In this document: positions 3,613-54,928 of the stretch, in pieces
Position numbering within the stretch: position 1 is the first letter of the stretch
How the letters are laid out: every line of letters starts with the position of its first letter
Virus genome (UHGV): UHGV-0370399
DNA from: a virus
Direction: 5' to 3' (one strand)
Length of the DNA: 64,000 nt
Translations under genes and position numbers: made by a program
Notes under the pieces: generated by a model
What the model was told of the DNA's origin: nothing
Seen by the model: only the letters and a program-made list of their open reading frames with translations
The model's database searches: none

Positions 3613-4094
3613 TGGTTAAAAGGGTTATTCACCCCGCGAGAGCAAAATTAGTCGGGGCTATGAAGAACTTGCAAACGGCTAATGCTCAAGTTGGGTATTT
3701 TCAAGAACAAGGTCAACATAGCTCTGGTTTTTCTTATCCTGCTTTAATGTATTTACAAGAAGTTATTGGGGTTCCTTCAGCTTCTGGTAAAGTATATCGT
3801 AGGTTGTTTGAAATCACTATGATGCTAAACAAACAGACCTTGTTAGAGCAGACTAAGAAGAATCTATATAAGCAACTTAGCAGTCTCAACACAGACCCTT
3901 CAAATACCTTAGAAGCATTTGCAAAGAATGCTCAAAAGGCAATTAAAAGAGGTTTTGGTAATTCTGCTATCCTCCCTCCTAACGCACCTTCCACAGTCAA
4001 GAAAAAAGGCTTTAACGCACCTCTTGTTGAGACAGGTGACTTAAGAGATAACCTTGCTTATAAAATTTCTACTAAGAAGGGTATTAAAAAATGA
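3612..4094 (+). CDS. hypothetical head-tail connector protein
   Basis: ATG overlaps the upstream stop (translational coupling); structural module position. Confidence 0.3.
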   Translation: MVKRVIHPARAKLVGAMKNLQTANAQVGYFQEQGQHSSGFSYPALMYLQEVIGVPSASGKVYRRLFEITMMLNKQTLLEQTKKNLYKQLSSLNTDPSNTLEAFAKNAQKAIKRGFGNSAILPPNAPSTVKKKGFNAPLVETGDLRDNLAYKISTKKGIKK

Positions 4095-4492: not shown

Positions 4493-5066
4493 AAAAGGTC
4501 TAGTTAGAACCTTAGTGGATGTTATTGGTCACAGACTAGCTCGTGATAAAAATAATAGACCAAATGTAATTAGAGCTTACCCTTCTGATAACTCAAATGA
4601 CAAAGGTTTAAAACCTGACCAGCCATTTATTACCGTATATTGTCAAGATGCTGCAACACCTTATGGTTGGGTTCTTGATAAGTTTGTTGAGGATGATGTA
4701 GTTTGCTACAGAATTGCTTTTCAGATTCCAGTATTAATTACGGTGAATGGTAAAGGTGCTCACAGTATTATGCTTGAGCTTAAACAACGATTAGAGATGA
4801 GTTCAGTCAGGGATTTAATTCTTGAAGAGACAGGAGCTACAGTACTAGACACTGGAGCCATCCCAAATGACTACACTTATCTCAATACAGATTTCGAAAA
4901 TTCTGCGCCTCTTGTTGTAACTCTTGTAAAAAATTCAGTCCTGAAAGATGAACGTGGAAGTATTATTGAGCGTGTCATTGTTGATGGTGAGTTGGTTTAT
5001 GAAGAAGGACAAGAGCCACCAGAATATACTATCCATCTAGATGTAGACTCCAAAGGGGTAAAATAA
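4467..5066 (+). CDS. hypothetical tail completion / sheath terminator protein
   Basis: ATG 4467 with SD aggga; lies directly before the sheath-like gene. Confidence 0.3.
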   Translation: MQLETAELEKGLVRTLVDVIGHRLARDKNNRPNVIRAYPSDNSNDKGLKPDQPFITVYCQDAATPYGWVLDKFVEDDVVCYRIAFQIPVLITVNGKGAHSIMLELKQRLEMSSVRDLILEETGATVLDTGAIPNDYTYLNTDFENSAPLVVTLVKNSVLKDERGSIIERVIVDGELVYEEGQEPPEYTIHLDVDSKGVK

Positions 5067-6419
5067 ATGTGGAATCCAATTGTTAATGTAGATATTACAT
5101 TGAACACCGCAGGAACTACAAGAGAAGGTTTTGGTTTGCCACTATTCTTAGCTTCAACAGATAACTTTGAAGAAAGAGTCCGTGGTTACACTTCCTTAAC
5201 TGAAGTTGCTGAAGATTTCGATGAAAACTCTGCTGCATATAAGGCTGCTAAACAACTTTGGAGTCAGACTCCTAAAGTAACTCAGCTTTATATTGGTAGA
5301 CGTGCTATGCAGTACACTGTATCAATTCCTAATGCCGTTGCTGAAAGTACAGACTACTCAATTACTGTAGCTGCTGGCGGTGGAATTTCTCAACCATATC
5401 AGTATACAGCGCAAGCTGAAGACACTGCTGAAAACGTGTTGCAACAGTTTAAAACACAGATTGAAGCTGACCCAACAATCAAAGATAAGGTTTCTGTGAA
5501 CGTAACTGGTAGCAATGGCTCTGCCACAATGATTATTACCAAAGCTGGTGATAATGACTTTGTGAAAGTAACAACTACAGCACAGACTGTGTATATTGCA
5601 AGTACAACTGCCGATACAGCATCAACTGCTCTGGCAGCTATCGAAGCTTACTCTACTGACTGGTATTTCATTGCAGCAGAAGACAGAACTCAACAGTTTG
5701 TCTTAGCAATGGCTTCTGAGATTCAGGCTCGCAAGAAAATCTTCTTTACAGCTAACTCCGATGTAACAGCCCTGCAAGGTACAGAATTAGCCAGTGCAAA
5801 TGATGTTCCAGCACAGCTTGCTAAGAGTATGTACACTCGTACAGTTTGCTTGTGGCATCACGCAGCAGCAGAAGACTACCCAGAGATGGCATACATTGCT
5901 TATGGTGCTCCATATGATGCAGGTTCAATTGCTTGGGGTAATGCTCAGCTAACTGGTGTAGCAGCTTCTCTACAACCATCTAATCAGAGACCTCTGACAA
6001 GTATTCAGAAGTCTGCTTTAGATGTACGTCACTGTAACTTTATTGACCTTGATGGTGGTGTTCCAGTGGTTCGTAGAGGGATTACTTCTGGTGGGGAATG
6101 GATTGATATCGTCCGTGGCGTTGACTGGTTAGAATCAGACCTGAAAACTTCTCTGAGAGACTTGCTAATTAACCAGAAGGGTGGTAAGATTACTTATGAT
6201 GATACTGGTATTACCCGTATTCGTCAAGTCATTGAAACCTCTCTACAAAGAGCAGTCAACAGAAACTTCCTGTCATCTTACACAGTTAATGTTCCTAAAG
6301 CCTCTCAAGTTGCTTTGGCAGACAAGAAAGCTCGTATCCTGAAAGATGTTACCTTCGCAGGTATCTTAGCAGGGGCTATCTTGGATGTTGACTTGAAAGG
6401 TACAGTGGCTTACGAATAA
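5067..6419 (+). CDS. putative tail sheath protein
   Basis: 450 aa ORF immediately upstream of a 148 aa tube-like gene, chaperone pair and tape measure gene, the canonical contractile-tail order. Confidence 0.5.
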   Translation: MWNPIVNVDITLNTAGTTREGFGLPLFLASTDNFEERVRGYTSLTEVAEDFDENSAAYKAAKQLWSQTPKVTQLYIGRRAMQYTVSIPNAVAESTDYSITVAAGGGISQPYQYTAQAEDTAENVLQQFKTQIEADPTIKDKVSVNVTGSNGSATMIITKAGDNDFVKVTTTAQTVYIASTTADTASTALAAIEAYSTDWYFIAAEDRTQQFVLAMASEIQARKKIFFTANSDVTALQGTELASANDVPAQLAKSMYTRTVCLWHHAAAEDYPEMAYIAYGAPYDAGSIAWGNAQLTGVAASLQPSNQRPLTSIQKSALDVRHCNFIDLDGGVPVVRRGITSGGEWIDIVRGVDWLESDLKTSLRDLLINQKGGKITYDDTGITRIRQVIETSLQRAVNRNFLSSYTVNVPKASQVALADKKARILKDVTFAGILAGAILDVDLKGTVAYE

Positions 6420-23017: not shown

Positions 23018-23401
23018 TCAAATACCTGTGCAGCTTCTGTTTTCTAAGAAATACTCCACACCATACATAGCTTTTTGCATCAAATCTTCTTTAAACTGGA
23101 TACGGTGGTTGAGCATCGCCTGTACATCAATATCGTCATGGTGTTTCTCTTTAATGTTTGCAGATTGCAGGAAATACTCTGCAAGAACACGATACTGGTA
23201 GTCAGTCACCTTATCAGTCATCTCTGTCAAAGACTCTTCAGAGATGGGTTTCAGTAGCTCACCATTAGCTAGAGCAACACCTTTTACAATCTGGCAAGTA
23301 TCTTCTGGAACACCTGACAAGTCCACATTTGGGAGTTCTGTTGCATTGACTGGTAAATTCATTGCCATAACCATTGCAGCAGCTAATAAAATCTTTTTCA
23401 T
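23018..23401 (-). CDS. secreted or periplasmic protein with signal peptide
   Basis: MKKILLAAAMVMAMNLPVNA signal-like N-terminus; SD gagg; first gene after the large noncoding region. Confidence 0.45.
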   Translation of the reverse strand: MKKILLAAAMVMAMNLPVNATELPNVDLSGVPEDTCQIVKGVALANGELLKPISEESLTEMTDKVTDYQYRVLAEYFLQSANIKEKHHDDIDVQAMLNHRIQFKEDLMQKAMYGVEYFLENRSCTGI

Positions 23402-23734: not shown

Positions 23735-24009
23735 TTAAAAACCCTTTTCAAAGACTCTTAAGTGATGCTGGTGAGTACCCGTTGGTTTATGCTGCTCAGC
23801 ATACTCACCAAATTTTCTATGTCAACAACTTTCTAATAAAGTTTTATGAAGATTTTGCTTAACAACCCGCCTCACATGCCTGTGCTCTTTCTTAATAAAG
23901 AGTGACCTCTTCTTGATAGAGCGCCTATTCTTGTAAGTATTACTAGGATACTTATCATGAACCGGACAACAGCTACCCGGATTGGTAAACTTGATAATCT
24001 CTCTTTTCA

Positions 24010-25110
24010 CTATTCATAATCCCTAATAACTAACCCGACAGGGAACTGTAAAGAACCCTTACGAGTCATCTTCTGAAACTGAACCGTTAAAGGCTTCCCG
24101 ATAAACTCTTCAGGATGTTCAGCAAGATACTGTTTCTTCTCGTGTGTAGTCTTCCATGAGACATCTACAAAGACGTTAGGAAGCGTCTCTACAACGAACT
24201 TACCATGACCACGTTTATCGGTCTTGACACCAGTAACTTTAAACTCTTCAGTGTGCATCTTCTTGTGCTTAATCAAGAAGTATGAACGGTGACTACACTC
24301 GTAGAAAGATTCTTCAGAGATTGAACGGTACATTGCACCTTCAAACTTAGCTTCAACCCACTTATCATGGGCTTCATCAAACTCTTCCCAAGAATTTACA
24401 CGGATAGTCTGTACAGGAACAACTCTACAGGTATCCCCAAGCTCAACAATTGGTGAATTATCAATAACTTCACGACGCTCAGGCCAAGTTTTTGAATTGT
24501 CGCAGATATCATACCAGTAGAATTTAAGAAGGTGACGGTCTGGATTGTCAGCATTCTTAATCATAGATACAATATCTTCTAAGTCCCAACCATGAGCATA
24601 AATCTCTCCATCAAAGTCTTCCACTTGCGGATGTAATTTAAGCAACAAAAGCAAATCTGGGATTAGTTCTGTTGGAACGTTGTAAACAGTATTCTCACGA
24701 GAATAGGCTGTGAAACTAACTGAATCAGCATCTCTTGAAATCCTACAACGTACACCATCAAGTTTTGGTTGAGCATCAGCAGGGAACTTCAGATACTTTG
24801 CATGGCTAACCTTTGCAGCATCATGAGCAAGCTGTACACCTACCTTCTCAGTATTCTGTGCAGATTCTTTTGTATAAGCATAACCTTTACGGTCAACTTG
24901 CTTTTTATACTTAGCAGCAACTTCAAAGAGAGCTTGCTGTTCAGCGTTACGCTCATTCTTTTTACCGATGTTCTTAGGCTCTGCTGTATACTCTTCAAAC
25001 ATCATCTTGCCATTCTCTTTACCGTAGGTTGTAATAACTTTGTCACCTACAGCAACACATGACCAGACGTTAAAAGAGCCGTCTTTATTTTGTTTGTACA
25101 GAATTGTCAT
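24010..25110 (-). CDS. ATP-dependent DNA ligase
   Basis: Adenylation motif KLDGVRC (KxDG) and size about 366 aa typical of phage ATP ligases. Confidence 0.85.
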   Translation of the reverse strand: MTILYKQNKDGSFNVWSCVAVGDKVITTYGKENGKMMFEEYTAEPKNIGKKNERNAEQQALFEVAAKYKKQVDRKGYAYTKESAQNTEKVGVQLAHDAAKVSHAKYLKFPADAQPKLDGVRCRISRDADSVSFTAYSRENTVYNVPTELIPDLLLLLKLHPQVEDFDGEIYAHGWDLEDIVSMIKNADNPDRHLLKFYWYDICDNSKTWPERREVIDNSPIVELGDTCRVVPVQTIRVNSWEEFDEAHDKWVEAKFEGAMYRSISEESFYECSHRSYFLIKHKKMHTEEFKVTGVKTDKRGHGKFVVETLPNVFVDVSWKTTHEKKQYLAEHPEEFIGKPLTVQFQKMTRKGSLQFPVGLVIRDYE

Positions 25111-25313
25111 TTTCTCTTACCACCAATCTCTACGTCGATAACTTGAACATCGCCAGCAACATCAAACTTATGTATGATGCTTTCCACAGTATAAGTCCAA
25201 CCATCAATGCGAACCATCTCACCTTCTCGTGGAACTATTGGATTACGTTGAGCTACAGTTGTAGTGGAGTGAACAACATCATAACGATAGATATAGTTTA
25301 CTAGGACTTCCAT
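25107..25313 (-). CDS. hypothetical protein
   Basis: ORF-track start 25412 is TTG; the ATG at 25313 has SD gagtgagg and avoids overlap with the lipoprotein gene; start is uncertain. Confidence 0.3.
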   Translation of the reverse strand: MEVLVNYIYRYDVVHSTTTVAQRNPIVPREGEMVRIDGWTYTVESIIHKFDVAGDVQVIDVEIGGKRK

Positions 25314-25323
25314 CGTGAAAACC

Positions 25324-25560
25324 TCACTCAATAACCGTAGTATGTGATTGTCCATTTTTGCCATAGCTGTAAGATGTTGTTGTTTGAGAGTTTGGACATC
25401 TGACAACAACAATATCTCTGCTTATAGCATCACCATGTAACTTGTATACTCTGCAATCTTGCATCTCTGGTGGGAGGCTATAAGAAGCATTTTTATCTTC
25501 ATAAGAAGGGTTGCAGCCAGATAGAAAAATAACACCAAGCGCAATTACCACTTTCCACAT
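25324..25560 (-). CDS. small lipoprotein
   Basis: MWKVVIALGVIFLSGC has a signal peptide with lipobox LSGC; SD aggag; ORF-track GTG start replaced by the ATG at 25560. Confidence 0.45.
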   Translation of the reverse strand: MWKVVIALGVIFLSGCNPSYEDKNASYSLPPEMQDCRVYKLHGDAISRDIVVVRCPNSQTTTSYSYGKNGQSHTTVIE

Positions 25561-25573
25561 AACACTACTCCTA

Positions 25574-25729
25574 TTACTGTTCACGATGTTCTACTTCTCT
25601 GTACGTTCGTCGATAGTATATAATAAGCTGTGCTAACTCGTTGCTTTTAACATCTGAACGTAGCAGTTGCCAATCAAAACCTTTACCGACTCTTCCATAT
25701 AAACTAAACAGTTTTACTTTGCGTTTCAT
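25574..25729 (-). CDS. hypothetical small basic protein
   Basis: ORF-track start is TTG; first in-frame ATG is at 25729. Confidence 0.25.
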   Translation of the reverse strand: MKRKVKLFSLYGRVGKGFDWQLLRSDVKSNELAQLIIYYRRTYREVEHREQ

Positions 25730-25745
25730 TTTGGTATACCAATAC

Positions 25746-25958
25746 TCAGAAGTCAATATTAATACGTTCGCCCTTAAGGACTCCAGTACGGTCTCTTGCA
25801 ATCTTGCCGTCAACAATAAGGATATGTGCAGCCCTTAAAGAGTCACTATTAAAAGCTTTTACGAACTTACTAGGCATCACTACAATGGGCATCTCCTGAA
25901 TCAACTCTGGAGTATAGCAATTGTCGTGAAGTTGCTGAATAACGTCTGCAAGTGTCAT
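25746..25958 (-). CDS. hypothetical protein
   Basis: ORF-track start is TTG; ATG at 25958 has SD ggaga. Confidence 0.3.
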   Translation of the reverse strand: MTLADVIQQLHDNCYTPELIQEMPIVVMPSKFVKAFNSDSLRAAHILIVDGKIARDRTGVLKGERINIDF

Positions 25959-26164
25959 TTTTGATGTCTCCAATACTCAATGTCAATAAGTTCTTGTGCA
26001 ATGCTTTTAAGGTTACCTTTCAAGAAAACCTTCTCAGAACCTGAAAGAGATGAATTGTCAATTAACCTGTTCATTCTCTCAAACAACTTCTGCTTACGAT
26101 TTTTGATAGTCTCCTTTGAAGCACCTTTCATCATTGCTGCATGGGTTCTTCCACGATGGCTCAT
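25955..26164 (-). CDS. hypothetical small basic protein
   Basis: ATG with SD aggaggg; 69 aa, K/R-rich. Confidence 0.35.
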   Translation of the reverse strand: MSHRGRTHAAMMKGASKETIKNRKQKLFERMNRLIDNSSLSGSEKVFLKGNLKSIAQELIDIEYWRHQK

Positions 26165-26215
26165 AATCCCTCCTATACAAGATGTAGTATAAGGTACTCT
26201 TCCCTGAGCACCTTG

Positions 26216-26740
26216 TCAACTTAGTTTTGCAAACTCTCCGTGGAGTTTAATAGCAGCTTCACAGTAAGCTTTATGGGCTTCTTCTGGTGTGTCAAACATA
26301 CCAAGATGATAGTTTTTACCTTGTAAACGTATCATTGCTCGAAACCTTTTACTTATCTTCTGTACACCTTTTGGCAACCCAGATGGGGACTTTCTTGACC
26401 GATTGCAAGAGTTTTGTGAAGCTGTACAAACCCTTAAATTCAAGTACCTATTGTCCCAACCGTCCCCATTCTTATGGTCAACCTGTAAGTTTTTATCAGG
26501 CAGGTATCCATCCACATATAGTATTGCTAGACGGTTAGCTTGGTAGCCTTTACCATCAAGCAATAACTGAACAGACTTGTGACCATCTGTGTTTATCCTA
26601 TAATTTCCTGCCTTTTTACCTCCAAAACGAGAGTTGAAGTTCTTATTGCCTCGTGATACCGGCTCTCTAAACTTCCAAGTAAAGACCCCTGTTTCGGGGT
26701 CGTAGTCCAATAGCTCCTTAAGACGAATTTCTGTAATCAT
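26216..26740 (-). CDS. HNH homing endonuclease with AP2-type DNA-binding domain
   Basis: YDPETGVFTW, HKNGDGWDNRYLNLRVCTASQN (HNH) and GKNYHLGMFDTPEEA (AP2-like); paralogue of 36343-36843; sits immediately 3' of the DNA polymerase gene. Confidence 0.8.
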   Translation of the reverse strand: MITEIRLKELLDYDPETGVFTWKFREPVSRGNKNFNSRFGGKKAGNYRINTDGHKSVQLLLDGKGYQANRLAILYVDGYLPDKNLQVDHKNGDGWDNRYLNLRVCTASQNSCNRSRKSPSGLPKGVQKISKRFRAMIRLQGKNYHLGMFDTPEEAHKAYCEAAIKLHGEFAKLS

Positions 26741-26750
26741 TTCAACACCA

Positions 26751-29450
26751 TCAATGTACTTCCAACCAGCTCTTACCAACCTTACCTGTGCCAGTTACAA
26801 GCGTCTCACTCTTCAAACCTAAATTCTTAGATGCCTGACCATACATCCAGTCAGTTATGGCTTTCACTTCTTGAGTCATACTTTCTGGACATTCCCAACT
26901 GTTTTCATCGTGGTATGCCAGCAAAAGCCTAGCACCAATTGCTGGTTTTCGTCCATTTAATTTTGTCAACCCTTCTTCACATGCTCTTCTACAAGCAAGG
27001 TTAATTGCCTCATTTTGAATCTGAGCCTCCGAACCCATGAGCAAATAATTCAATAACTTATGTGGAGATTTACACCACAACCAAGCTCCAGCAACCTTTA
27101 CAAAACCCCCTTTAGAGATTGCAGCAGTCTTACCAAACACCTCTTCAAGTGCCTTTTTAGTTGCTTTGTAGTCAGCTTCCAAGTCATCTAACAGCTTCTT
27201 AATTTTAGGCAAACGGATAAAGTAAGTCTGTTTAGTCAGCGCACCTTCCTGAGTAGTTGCAGCCTTAATCGTCTTAGCAAACTTCTCATCACCTGCACCG
27301 AACAGCAGTGCATAGATACCATTCTTAGCTTTCTTACGGCCTTTGCTAATCTCATGAAGAAGATTCTCATCCTGAGTAGCTCGACAAGTCAAGATATCCT
27401 GCTCATCATTCAAGCTAAAGTAAATACTGTTCAATGTATGTGCATCAGTCCCTGAATAGACAACGTACAGGTCATTCTCAGAGTCATAGCGAAGGTACTT
27501 ATCAATCTCTGGGTTGAGGTACTCATCAAAATGTTTGCAGTAATAGCGTCCATCTTCTTGACGAATGAACTCAATTTCTTCTTTACCTTGCGTTACCGCT
27601 TTGGTGAAGTCTTTATCACCCATAAAGTTACAAAGAAGAACTAGCTGGGCTGAGTTCATATCTACAGAGACAACGTTAGTACCTTCCTCACAAATCCATA
27701 CTGCCCTCATTGGTTCTCCATAGACAGCAGCACCAGACGGTACGTTTACAATACCATACTGTGTCATACGTCCAGTTGAAGTACCAAACACCATTGCACC
27801 AGCACTAAGGCGACCATCAGGACGAATCTGGTTAAGCCAACCTTTTTCATCATCCTTTGAGTTCTCAATAGTTCTGCGTCGGTGCATCAAAGTATAGTAC
27901 TTAGCAATCTTCTGTCCAAGCTCACCTTCAATCGTATCATAAGATGATTCAGTAAGTTTTGGTGAAGTACGGATTAAGCAAGGTTCAAGCAAATCTGTGT
28001 ATTTCTTCACAGACCAGTTATGCTCGATGTACTGTACACCTTCATGTTCAACATAACTCAAACCACACCGCTCAACCATTTCCTGCCACTTAGGATGCTT
28101 TGTAATCATCTTTTTATTGTCTTTGAAACGACAAACTTTGACAGGGCGACCATCTGAGTCTTTCTTGTAATTCCAGTCATCTGGAACCCAACCAACTGAT
28201 TTCAAGTAGTCTTTAACAACTGCTACCTGAGTCATACGAGAAACTTCAAACTCAATTGGTGTATATGGCGCATCAATCAAACCTGTGTAGCGACTTGACT
28301 CAAGTTCAAAGTGGTTAACAACGTGGCTGTTATAGTACTTCACAGTTTTGACTGTTTTTACTGGTTTCCAGTCTTTGCATTTCTTACCAATCTTTGCGTT
28401 CAACTCATTGCAAATTGCACGAGCATCCTTCATTGCTACAAAACCCTCCTTGTACTCTTCACCAGTTACAGAGTTGGTTGGTGTATAGCAATTTCTCTTT
28501 TCAATGTTAAAAATCTTTGTAGTTGGCTTACCAAATGGTTTGATTTCATAAGTCTGCATCTCACCATTACGCACCTGCTGACGATACTTCGTCTTAGGGT
28601 ACTTGGTAATTCTTTTCAGTCCATCTGCATGACCAAATGCTTCAACATACTCATTCCAAGCTTTTGCAAACTCTTCTCCAGTGACTTTACCTTTGGTCTT
28701 AATAGTTGGAGGTAGATGCGGTTCAACTTCTGAAGCAAGCTCATTAGTCAACTTGTCAAGTTCCTTTACATGGAACTCCATAAGCTCTTTATCAGCTTTC
28801 CAGCCATTGATAGCTTGTTGACTCATCCAGAAAGATGTTTCTTTAGCTCGCATGTAGGTTTCATAAGTGTCTATGCCACACTTCTTAAGCTTGAGATATT
28901 CATTATCAAGTGCCCGTTTAGTTTTGGCGTTAATACGGATATCTTCTACAACACGAGTGAAGATTTCTGCATTCCACACACCCCAATGTTCAATCTCTGG
29001 TTTACGAACACCAACACGAGCACCCCATGCAGCCAAACCATGAGCACCTTTATAGCCCTTTGGAGTTGGTCTATCCATCCACTGAACACGAGACTGGATA
29101 AGAGAATCCTGAAAGAAATTACTCCACGGTTTACACTTTGGATTATCAAAGTTCCATAAATCAGGTGCAATGTGATTGAAAACCCACCAGTCATAACCGA
29201 GACCATTATGGATGCAAAGACGTTTTGCCTTTAACGCAAACTCAATGCCTTCACGTAAGCCACCCTTAATGTACTTGGTATACTTGTGACCGAGGATAGG
29301 CTCATCTGTAAAGACCCATACAGGCGGCTCTTCATCGTCAGATTTATAGTCTGCGAAAGCCATTACGTGCACTTTAGTGAACTCAAGGAGTAAACCATCA
29401 GTTTCTGTATCACCAACTAAATGTAAGTTTTTAAAATCTACGTTTTCCAT
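26751..29450 (-). CDS. family A DNA polymerase with 3'-5' exonuclease domain
   Basis: Exo motif VGDTETDGL near the N-terminus; polymerase motifs DMNSAQL, K..YG and YHDE; start placed at the ATG with SD gagggag (ORF-track start is 10 codons upstream). Confidence 0.9.
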   Translation of the reverse strand: MENVDFKNLHLVGDTETDGLLLEFTKVHVMAFADYKSDDEEPPVWVFTDEPILGHKYTKYIKGGLREGIEFALKAKRLCIHNGLGYDWWVFNHIAPDLWNFDNPKCKPWSNFFQDSLIQSRVQWMDRPTPKGYKGAHGLAAWGARVGVRKPEIEHWGVWNAEIFTRVVEDIRINAKTKRALDNEYLKLKKCGIDTYETYMRAKETSFWMSQQAINGWKADKELMEFHVKELDKLTNELASEVEPHLPPTIKTKGKVTGEEFAKAWNEYVEAFGHADGLKRITKYPKTKYRQQVRNGEMQTYEIKPFGKPTTKIFNIEKRNCYTPTNSVTGEEYKEGFVAMKDARAICNELNAKIGKKCKDWKPVKTVKTVKYYNSHVVNHFELESSRYTGLIDAPYTPIEFEVSRMTQVAVVKDYLKSVGWVPDDWNYKKDSDGRPVKVCRFKDNKKMITKHPKWQEMVERCGLSYVEHEGVQYIEHNWSVKKYTDLLEPCLIRTSPKLTESSYDTIEGELGQKIAKYYTLMHRRRTIENSKDDEKGWLNQIRPDGRLSAGAMVFGTSTGRMTQYGIVNVPSGAAVYGEPMRAVWICEEGTNVVSVDMNSAQLVLLCNFMGDKDFTKAVTQGKEEIEFIRQEDGRYYCKHFDEYLNPEIDKYLRYDSENDLYVVYSGTDAHTLNSIYFSLNDEQDILTCRATQDENLLHEISKGRKKAKNGIYALLFGAGDEKFAKTIKAATTQEGALTKQTYFIRLPKIKKLLDDLEADYKATKKALEEVFGKTAAISKGGFVKVAGAWLWCKSPHKLLNYLLMGSEAQIQNEAINLACRRACEEGLTKLNGRKPAIGARLLLAYHDENSWECPESMTQEVKAITDWMYGQASKNLGLKSETLVTGTGKVGKSWLEVH

Positions 29451-29511
29451 TTTTACTCCCTCTAAAATCATTAACCTCATACATTACTGCAAAAAATTAT
29501 AAAAAGCAAGT

Positions 29512-52668: not shown

Positions 52669-53217
52669 ATGAAGAAATTGATTCTAGGTTTGTGCTTAAT
52701 GTTTACAGCACACTTATCTTATGCAGTTGACTGCCCAGAGCTATCAATTAGCCAAAAAGTAAACATGTTAAAAGCTTACCAGTATGGTGAGAATAACATG
52801 GGTAAAGGTTGGGGTATCACTCTAGCTGCTATAGCCTTACAAGAGTCAGAGTTAGGTCTGAAGGTAGAGAATAAAAAGACCCATGACTATGGTATCTTCC
52901 AGAATCACTTGAAGACTGTTGTAAAGCGTAACAAAATTAGTCCTAATGTGGCTAAAAAGAAACTCTTAAAAGACTTTGACTATGCTGCGAAGGAAACTCA
53001 CAAAGAGCTTGAGTTTTGGACAAAGGTGCATGGTCAGCCAAAGTCAAAGAAGACTTTACAAAAAGTTTTAGCATCATATAATGCTGGGTATTCGTACAGA
53101 ATCCCTAAAGCTAAGAAATATTCTCAAGATGTCTATAACAACATGAAAGTTATTGCTCAATGTGAATTTGCAACAAACATTTCTAAGGTAAACCATGAAA
53201 AAATTAAAAAAGTCTGA
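52669..53217 (+). CDS. signal-peptide lytic transglycosylase (SLT domain), endolysin candidate
   Basis: N-terminal MKKLILGLCLMFTAHLSYA signal; catalytic-region motifs QESE, YGIFQ and AYNAGY match the SLT family. Confidence 0.55.
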   Translation: MKKLILGLCLMFTAHLSYAVDCPELSISQKVNMLKAYQYGENNMGKGWGITLAAIALQESELGLKVENKKTHDYGIFQNHLKTVVKRNKISPNVAKKKLLKDFDYAAKETHKELEFWTKVHGQPKSKKTLQKVLASYNAGYSYRIPKAKKYSQDVYNNMKVIAQCEFATNISKVNHEKIKKV

Positions 53218-54417: not shown

Positions 54418-54765
54418 ATGACATTTAAAGAGTTCTGTCAAGCTACTTTCATAATTGTTTTCTTAGTTGGTGCAGGTGTCTGGGGAGGATACTCTTACAG
54501 AGACTATCAAGTTGCTGAAACTGAGCTAAATAATGAGAAACTAATAAGTGTTGCTAAAGATGCTTATCAGGAAGGTTTAGCCACACTCAGCACCAATTAC
54601 AAAAATGATTTGAAAGATGTGCTTGCTAAGAATAAGCATACAAAAGAGGTACTAACATATGAAAAAACTAAGCCAGAGTTTTATAATGTTTGTGTTACTG
54701 ATAACTATGTCAGGGTGTTCAACGAACAAAGTGAGCAGTACATTCAAAAACTCCCAAGTAAGTGA
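54418..54765 (+). CDS. putative i-spanin (Rz-like)
   Basis: N-terminal transmembrane helix FIIVFLVGAGVWGG then helical periplasmic domain; SD aggaga; the lipoprotein gene is overlapped in its 3' end. Confidence 0.45.
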   Translation: MTFKEFCQATFIIVFLVGAGVWGGYSYRDYQVAETELNNEKLISVAKDAYQEGLATLSTNYKNDLKDVLAKNKHTKEVLTYEKTKPEFYNVCVTDNYVRVFNEQSEQYIQKLPSK

Positions 54766-54928
54766 GAGTGATAAGTACACCCAAGAAGAATCACGGTATA
54801 TCATCAAAGGCAACACAGGCAGCGATGTAGCAGCAGCCCTTGAGTTCTATCGTGACGGCTTTTACCAGTGCACAATCAAAGCTAACAACCTTATTGACAT
54901 GATTTTATTAGGGAATAAGCAGCAATGA
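54659..54928 (+). CDS. putative o-spanin (Rz1-like lipoprotein) in overlapped architecture
   Basis: MKKLSQSFIMFVLLITMSGC has a signal peptide with lipobox-like MSGC; starts in the +1 frame inside 54418-54765. Confidence 0.45.
   Translation: MKKLSQSFIMFVLLITMSGCSTNKVSSTFKNSQVSESDKYTQEESRYIIKGNTGSDVAAALEFYRDGFYQCTIKANNLIDMILLGNKQQ

Follow-up and report, generated by a model that had tools for sequence, protein, structure and literature searches.

A conserved DUF4884 lipoprotein of a Felix O1-like phage as a candidate periplasmic binder of a host envelope component

We analysed a 64,000-nucleotide stretch of viral DNA (UHGV virus genome UHGV-0370399; 'the window' below means this whole stretch), in which an earlier note had picked out a small lipoprotein gene and suggested that its product might exclude superinfecting phages or mask a phage receptor. 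The gene, at 25324-25560 on the minus strand, very probably encodes a genuine secreted, disulfide-bonded lipoprotein of the DUF4884 / phrog_902 family. Our reading, to which we give a probability of roughly 0.6, is that this protein would work by itself in the periplasm and bind a conserved target of the host. What the phage would gain is a more tentative matter: that competing phages are kept out, or that the envelope is conditioned in some other way, is a benefit that we propose with less than even confidence.

The open reading frame (ORF) runs from an ATG at 25560-25558 to a TGA at 25326-25324 (78 codons plus stop), and is 100% identical to an ORF of Felixounavirus LF82P3. Lipoprotein precursors follow the pattern [LVI][ASTVI][GAS]C, with the Cys within residues 15-35 and an early Lys or Arg. 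The N-terminus of the predicted protein (MWKVVIALGVIFLSGC) has one Lys (K3), a 10-residue uncharged hydrophobic core, VVIALGVIFL, and the lipobox L-S-G-C with its Cys at residue 16. It thus has the charged n-region, hydrophobic core, lipobox and Cys position that are standard for lipoprotein precursors, and the ORF is not a chance ORF. In Lol sorting the residue after the lipidated Cys (+2) sets the inner- or outer-membrane destination, and by this rule the Asn at +2 predicts outer-membrane sorting of the window lipoprotein. At the other end, the C-terminus (...GKNGQSHTTVIE) has a polar sequence. When all six frames of the 64-kb window were scanned crudely for lipoboxes, only this ORF, the outer-membrane spanin described below and one spurious ORF came up. 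The earlier note's account of the gene, that of a 78-residue ORF with a signal peptide, a lipobox and a good Shine-Dalgarno sequence, therefore stands, to the exact coordinates. The features of the gene and its product are as follows.

25324-25560, minus strand: coding sequence of the 78-residue lipoprotein precursor, stop codon included (phrog_902, E = 1.3e-16).
25568-25572, minus strand: Shine-Dalgarno sequence AGGAG, 7 nt 5' of the lipoprotein ATG, by direct reading of the sequence.
25516-25560, minus strand: signal peptide, residues 1-15 (MWKVVIALGVIFLSG), which signal peptidase II is predicted to cleave off.
25513-25524, minus strand: lipobox L13-S14-G15-C16, in which Cys16 is by sequence the predicted acylated N-terminus of the mature protein.
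25327-25515, minus strand: mature domain, residues 16-78, an 11-residue tether and then a small antiparallel beta domain in two AlphaFold2 models.
25453-25455, minus strand: Cys36, invariant in three family alignments, predicted disulfide partner of Cys55.
25396-25398, minus strand: Cys55, invariant in the alignments and followed by invariant Pro56.
25375-25401, minus strand: most conserved stretch, R54-C-P-N-S-Q-T-T-T62, invariant in Felixounavirus orthologues.

Family membership does not depend on the signal peptide: the protein matches phrog_902 at full length (E = 1.3e-16) and with its mature part alone (E = 2.7e-10), and among its homologues the precomputed label PF16225:DUF4884 is found. 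Searching 1.84 billion representative proteins with a profile, we obtained 683 clusters (50% identity) at E <= 1e-3 and 116 at E <= 1e-10, the matched clusters being almost all 75-130 residues long. The strict lipobox pattern is present in 173 of 184 homologues, and most of the others have near-variants (LFGC, LYGC). Across 200 members the architecture consists of a lipidated Cys, about 20 residues, a Cys, about 19 residues (median 19) and a Cys-Pro, and C36 and C55-P56 of the window protein follow this layout. When we counted cysteines after the lipidated one in 212 members, 161 had two and 32 had four; the number was even in 91%, several of the odd counts being artefacts of lipobox picking. 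Periplasmic proteins with disulfides would be expected to have their cysteines paired in this way. The mature part has the consensus Y-x-L-P-x-E-L-x-D-C-K-x-Y ... L-x-V-V-R-C-P-N-S-x-T-x-T ... G-K. Searches of Pfam, NCBIfam, PADLOC and PDB, by single sequence and by profile, gave no match informative of function, with PDB sequence matches limited to the signal peptide (PqiC, FlgP and Llp), and we found no functional study in the literature on DUF4884, PF16225, phrog_902 and Felixounavirus lipoproteins.

The mature domain is under strong purifying selection and the signal peptide evolves faster. In a set of 21 Felixounavirus orthologues from IMG/VR together with the window copy, the median pairwise ratio of nonsynonymous to synonymous substitution rates was 0.055 for the mature part (residues 16-77) and 0.44 for the signal peptide. 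The motif VVRCPNSQTTT is invariant across these 22 copies, and the stretch R54-T62 is a candidate binding surface. Two database clusters from Felixounavirus-like contigs, P0013 and P0014, are 64-residue variants with a frameshift after about residue 47, which suggests that some isolates may do without the gene, provided that the frameshifts do not stem from sequencing. The two variants have one common out-of-frame tail (…YCCCQMSKLSNNNIL), and the frameshift could reflect either a gene inactivated in nature or an error that sequencing makes repeatedly at a homopolymer.

We modelled the protein twice with AlphaFold2, as the full precursor with 27 sequences and as the mature part with 49. The mean predicted local distance difference test (pLDDT) scores were 69.8 and 68.2, respectively, and both models have one five-strand topology, with a short N-terminal strand, a helix turn at LPPEM and four antiparallel strands. 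Cys36 lies just ahead of strand 2 and Cys55 just past strand 3, so that they flank the beta2-beta3 hairpin in the models; a disulfide between them would staple this hairpin. Foldseek returned nothing from the PDB at E <= 0.001, and neither Llp (8A60) nor Rtp45 (9RPS) appeared, while a fold search of BFVD found family members only. Because AlphaFold2 mispredicts free Llp, according to the authors of the Llp structure (PMC9586334), the missing fold match is weak evidence.

The genomic setting places the gene with the replication functions of the phage. Over the 3 kb surrounding it, identity is 98.6% to Felixounavirus LF82P2 and 90-95% to many Felix O1-like phages that infect E. coli, Salmonella, Shigella and Citrobacter; the window is from a Felixounavirus, that is, from a Felix O1-like phage. 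The upstream gene ends in a TAA at 25576-25574, 13 nt ahead of the lipoprotein ATG, and the downstream gene begins with an ATG at 25313, 10 nt past the lipoprotein stop. These short gaps make the lipoprotein gene part of a tight co-directional string on the minus strand, which comprises genes for DNA polymerase (26751-29480), an HNH endonuclease (26216-26779), four small ORFs, DNA ligase (24010-25110) and more small ORFs, in this order. The place of the lipoprotein gene is between polymerase and ligase, and its small neighbours encode proteins without assigned function. The leftward operon of the earlier note is thus recovered as a leftward string with replication genes. Early expression, which the note also proposed, is suggested by co-orientation with the DNA polymerase, HNH and ligase genes, the sole ground on which we infer it. 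In the related phage Mushroom, no gene for a tail fibre or receptor-binding protein is annotated near the lipoprotein gene.

We extended the analysis to the distribution of the family. A tblastn search of 50,697 phage records found it in 598 of them, from several unrelated lineages. Carriers include Felixounavirus, in which most records have the gene; the Aeromonas Straboviridae (Ahp1); jumbo phages of Serratia, Erwinia and E. coli (BF, fEgEco12); and the Vibrio Demerecviridae (JSF12, 234P1) and Vibrio phage MS02. Subsequent searches extended the list to E. coli phage A7_1, Serratia phage Kashira, Yersinia phage fHe-Yen9-03, Aeromonas phages Aeh1 and phiAS5, and Acinetobacter phage ME3. Phage pSf-1, when checked for a family member, had none. 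In every annotated case the gene lies among small hypothetical genes in an early or nucleotide-metabolism part of the genome. An all-against-all BLAST of the flanking ORFs at 13 loci of different lineages revealed no other common gene and no conserved partner; genes for dihydrofolate reductase (DHFR), thymidylate synthase and polynucleotide kinase recur sporadically among these flanks. The lack of a conserved partner gene implies that the lipoprotein probably acts alone as a binding module.

Outside phages the family is nearly absent. A blastn search of 5,426 complete E. coli genomes gave no match, and 72,556 plasmids gave one partial match. The motif VVRCPNS[QNS]T occurs at one locus among 185,579 species genomes (one genome per species), a scan that sees only the subfamily with this motif, so that near-absence from bacteria holds for this motif only. 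The family is confined almost entirely to virulent phages and is nearly absent from cellular genomes and plasmids. The sole bacterial motif match is a 92-residue member in Hylemonella gracilis ATCC 19624 (NZ_AEGR01000062.1; extracted locus 4956-5234), where it lies in a variable island alongside an XRE regulator, a CTD10-domain protein of an ABC-3C system, a second lipobox ORF (257 residues) and a secreted protein of the endonuclease/exonuclease/phosphatase family. This context, a single case, fits a conflict-related role.

Taking these features together, we propose the following course of events. The lipoprotein gene would be transcribed together with the replication genes, and Sec would export the precursor, which would receive its lipid on Cys16 and lose its signal peptide to signal peptidase II. 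In the periplasm, the Cys36-Cys55 disulfide would staple the beta hairpin, leaving a beta domain of 62 residues tethered by about 11 more, and the RCPNSxTTT region would bind some component of the envelope that is exposed to the periplasm and conserved across Gammaproteobacteria. What the phage would most likely gain is an infected cell that is refractory to envelope penetration by competing phages, independently of their receptors, or whose envelope is otherwise conditioned; the mechanism would not include allosteric masking of the phage's own receptor as performed by T5 Llp. More broadly, the DUF4884 lipoproteins might be periplasmic effectors that unrelated virulent phages direct at one conserved envelope machine (for example Lpt, Bam, Tol-Pal, TonB or peptidoglycan remodelling), giving receptor-independent exclusion or an unprecedented takeover of the envelope, distinct from and coexisting with the Llp, Cor and Rtp45 systems; we hold this wider conjecture to be somewhat unlikely.

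To our knowledge, the small non-lysis lipoproteins of virulent coliphages whose function is known (Llp, Cor, Rtp45) are all disulfide-bearing exclusion factors. Precedent of this kind and the distribution of the family are what may point to a general role in superinfection exclusion, and we suggest such a role only tentatively. The receptor-independent type of mechanism that we propose for the window lipoprotein has a parallel in T4 Sp (spackle), a small periplasmic protein of a virulent phage that excludes incoming phages by inhibiting their tail lysozyme. Unlike the window protein, Sp is helical and is not a lipoprotein; no sequence or fold relation to it turned up in our general searches, which included no test directed at Sp.

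We compared the window protein with the exclusion lipoproteins individually. T5 Llp (phrog_1119; PDB 8A60 chain B) is likewise made as a lipoprotein precursor of about 77 residues by a virulent enterobacterial phage, has one disulfide in its mature part and faces the periplasm (PMC9586334). However, llp lies directly beside the receptor-binding gene oad/pb5 and its product is FhuA-specific (PMC9586334), whereas the window gene lies among replication genes. The BLASTP alignment of the two proteins covers the signal peptide and, past that, just a short stretch with gaps, and the family profile, run against all PDB sequences, touches Llp (8A60_B) at residues 1-18 only. Rtp45 of phage Rtp (phrog_4281; PDB 9RPS), an exclusion lipoprotein that blocks LptDE, resembles the window protein in being a lipoprotein of about 6 kDa with a disulfide (PMC12685063), and it binds at the periplasmic outer-membrane interface, partly through beta-strand pairing (PMC12685063). 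Its gene adjoins the receptor-binding gene rtp44 (PMC12685063), in contrast to the window gene, which does not adjoin one. After removal of the signal peptides, the window protein, Llp and Rtp45 each match only their own PHROG (phrog_902, phrog_1119 and phrog_4281, respectively), and hhalign with the mature-only family profile gives a probability of 0.9% against Llp and 0.05% against Rtp45. The window lipoprotein is, as judged from these alignments, unrelated to Llp, Cor or Rtp45 beyond the signal peptide.

Two annotations in phage fEgEco12 bear on this comparison. The label 'lytic conversion lipoprotein' on its DUF4884 homologue, g526, was rejected because the phrog_1119 match vanishes without the signal peptide. 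Two genes away, g528 (extracted locus 3617-3892) encodes a second, unrelated small lipoprotein of 91 residues with several cysteines; the same label is unsupported here as well, since the match is to phrog_31263 (E = 6.4e-65) and not to the Llp/Cor family phrog_1119.

A remote relative exists elsewhere in phage Rtp, so that Rtp45 is not the equivalent of the window protein. The products of Rtp rtp3 and vB_EcoS-95 gp34 (phrog_6360) are lipoproteins of about 87 residues encoded in the early region, with a comparable Cys...Cys...G-K/R layout, and they match the mature-only family profile with a probability of 72.7% (E = 3.2e-5), both cysteines being in register. The depositors of vB_EcoS-95 annotated gp34 as DUF4884. 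These proteins differ in lacking the LPxE and RCPNS motifs, are uncharacterised, and the mature part of rtp3 gave no direct phrog_902 match. A remote link between rtp3 and the DUF4884 family is only moderately supported by sequence.

The same phenotype of lipoprotein-mediated exclusion could in principle arise by receptor masking of the Llp, Cor or Rtp45 type, an idea that the earlier note, citing T5 Llp, had raised. Here the lipoprotein would bind the periplasmic face of the phage's own outer-membrane receptor, close its surface loops allosterically, block adsorption of sister phages and shield progeny from debris. The window protein resembles such factors in its roughly 60 mature residues, predicted outer-membrane sorting, one disulfide and origin in a virulent phage (PMC9586334; PMC12685063), but Felixounaviruses, according to literature on the group rather than on the window phage, need the core of lipopolysaccharide (LPS), not an outer-membrane protein, for adsorption and plating (PMC13196588). 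The masking model is further disfavoured by the position of the gene, which is not next to a receptor-binding protein gene as llp and rtp45 are, by the dissimilarity of the mature domain to Llp and Rtp45 and by the absence of a PDB fold match. The domain is, moreover, conserved among phages that infect Enterobacterales, Vibrio, Aeromonas or Acinetobacter and cannot have one receptor in common; its strong purifying selection and conservation are the reverse of what one would predict if it were receptor-specific; and DUF4884-type lipoproteins co-occur with Rtp45 or Cor in single genomes. We therefore regard receptor masking as very unlikely. Still less credible is a function as the outer-membrane spanin subunit (Rz1-like) or another lysis component. 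Rz1-type spanins are small outer-membrane phage lipoproteins too, and one homologue, P0029, is annotated 'putative spanin'; however, their genes lie in or beside the inner-membrane spanin gene, which this one does not, and the neighbours of the lipoprotein gene include no spanin-family match, no transmembrane-like stretch (by inspection) and no coiled-coil protein. The window has its own canonical overlapping pair at 54418-54928, the reason for which we rejected the P0029 label. The lipoprotein itself has no C-terminal transmembrane segment, and so is not a unimolecular spanin of the T1 gp11 kind, and its mature part has only 4 prolines in 62 residues.

The main rival to a role directed at competing phages is that the lipoprotein inhibits or modulates a host envelope enzyme or machine (peptidoglycan hydrolases, proteases, Tol-Pal, TonB or Lpt) in the service of the phage's own cycle, for example to keep the envelope stable until lysis or to time lysis. 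A stand-alone gene with a highly conserved polar loop, found in phages of many hosts, would suit this function, as would a predicted anchoring in the inner membrane for some members and the outer membrane for others, in line with a soluble or trans-periplasmic target, and the lack of redundancy with known exclusion lipoproteins. On the other hand, no known inhibitor family was matched in Pfam, NCBIfam, PADLOC or the PDB sequence and fold searches, and the frameshifted variants suggest dispensability; we judge this explanation rather unlikely. The lipoprotein might instead counter a host or prophage barrier located in the envelope, such as prophage exclusion proteins or decoy vesicles. Restriction to virulent phages and residence in variable early regions rich in small accessory genes are compatible with counter-defence, but nothing points to it specifically, and such genes are usually patchy and fast-evolving, whereas this one is very conserved and present in most Felixounavirus records. 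We consider counter-defence unlikely.

Several observations weigh against the reading of the protein as an early-made, outer-membrane-directed exclusion factor that binds a conserved host target. The idea of exclusion is an analogy. Phages Rtp and Henu8 already own a dedicated exclusion lipoprotein, which suggests that the DUF4884 family may do something else: in Rtp, rtp3 exists besides the experimentally proven Rtp45, and the annotation of Henu8 lists a Cor protein (ORF45) separately from a DUF4884 protein (ORF6) (PMC12210894). The +2 and +3 residues cast doubt on a common outer-membrane target, since they differ among homologues from the same host (C-N-P in Felixounavirus, C-D-A in E. coli jumbo phages, C-D-Q in E. 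coli phage A7_1) and are C-D-G in the Serratia and Erwinia phage homologues; family-wide, D, S, N, E, G, T or A occur at +2 in comparable numbers. Judged by eye with the +2 rule, the C-D-A, C-D-G and C-D-Q homologues would bear inner-membrane retention signals, with C-D-Q a strong one. The subfamilies either have different targets or act on one that can be reached from both membranes; a soluble protein of the periplasm, the cell wall or a machine spanning the envelope would suit the second case. The AlphaFold2 models have moderate confidence and no structural analogue. Expression timing gains nothing from a scan for sigma-70 promoters and terminators, which gave the same site counts as shuffled sequence. 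Finally, hmmscan of our Pfam copy, with the window protein and 27 family members and cut-offs of up to E <= 1 to 10, found no PF16225 match, the model being seemingly missing or changed.

Public phage genomes already contained the sequence, annotated as 'hypothetical protein', and the family carries a DUF number. The new element is the picture of a very large family of lipoproteins, restricted to virulent phages, that is distinct from, and coexists with, the known exclusion lipoproteins; it is a reasonable candidate for testing rather than a surprise. Each of the known small phage lipoproteins (Llp, Cor, Rtp45) showed a way to close an outer-membrane machine from within the periplasm, and Rtp45 pointed to ways of inhibiting the essential LptDE complex. 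The DUF4884 family is far more widespread than these three, occurring in Felix O1-like, T4-like, T5-like and jumbo phages and more distantly in T1-like phages. If its members do bind a conserved envelope target, they would represent a general phage strategy and perhaps mark a vulnerable site in the Gram-negative envelope. Felixounaviruses are common phages in therapy and biocontrol, and an exclusion factor, if that is what the protein is, would affect co-infection and the design of cocktails. Should the role be merely a minor accessory one, the finding would amount to the annotation of a DUF family.

The spanin pair of the window consists of an inner-membrane subunit at 54418-54765 (plus strand), a protein of 115 residues with an N-terminal transmembrane segment that matches phrog_1152 'Rz-like spanin' (E = 8e-42), and an overlapping outer-membrane subunit at 54659-54928 (plus strand), an 89-residue lipoprotein with lipobox MSGC that matches phrog_4180 and, weakly, phrog_456 'Rz-like spanin' (3e-4). 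A two-gene spanin has been described in Felixounavirus (PMC12210895). About 1.2 kb upstream of the pair, the ORF at 52669-53217 (plus strand) encodes a protein of 182 residues with a cleavable-looking signal peptide (MKKLILGLCLMFTAHLSYA), an 'ALQESELG' motif and a match to phrog_600 (E = 1e-57), a family predicted to be lysozyme-like (PMC9409062); the product could be a secreted lysis enzyme of the transglycosylase type.

We also noted several features of the leftward string itself. When positions 24000-27000 are compared with relatives, most of the latter align in two pieces, and their aligned span exceeds that of the window by about 150-190 bp. Between the genes for ligase and lipoprotein, Mushroom has two small genes (gp043 and gp044) and the window a single one (25107-25313), and this interval is a small indel hotspot. 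The HNH homing endonuclease ORF (AP2-domain type; 26216-26779, minus strand) overlaps the 3' end of the DNA polymerase ORF (26751-29480, minus strand), which is uninterrupted and encodes 909 residues in the window; the Mushroom polymerase is annotated as two coding sequences with a gap, suggesting an intervening element or a disruption that is absent from the window. The string also encodes a second exported protein at 23018-23401 (minus strand), of 127 residues, with a signal peptide (MKKILLAAAMVMAMNLPVNA) and no lipobox, which matches phrog_4332 (no assigned function) with E = 3e-67 and is likely to be periplasmic and made alongside the lipoprotein.

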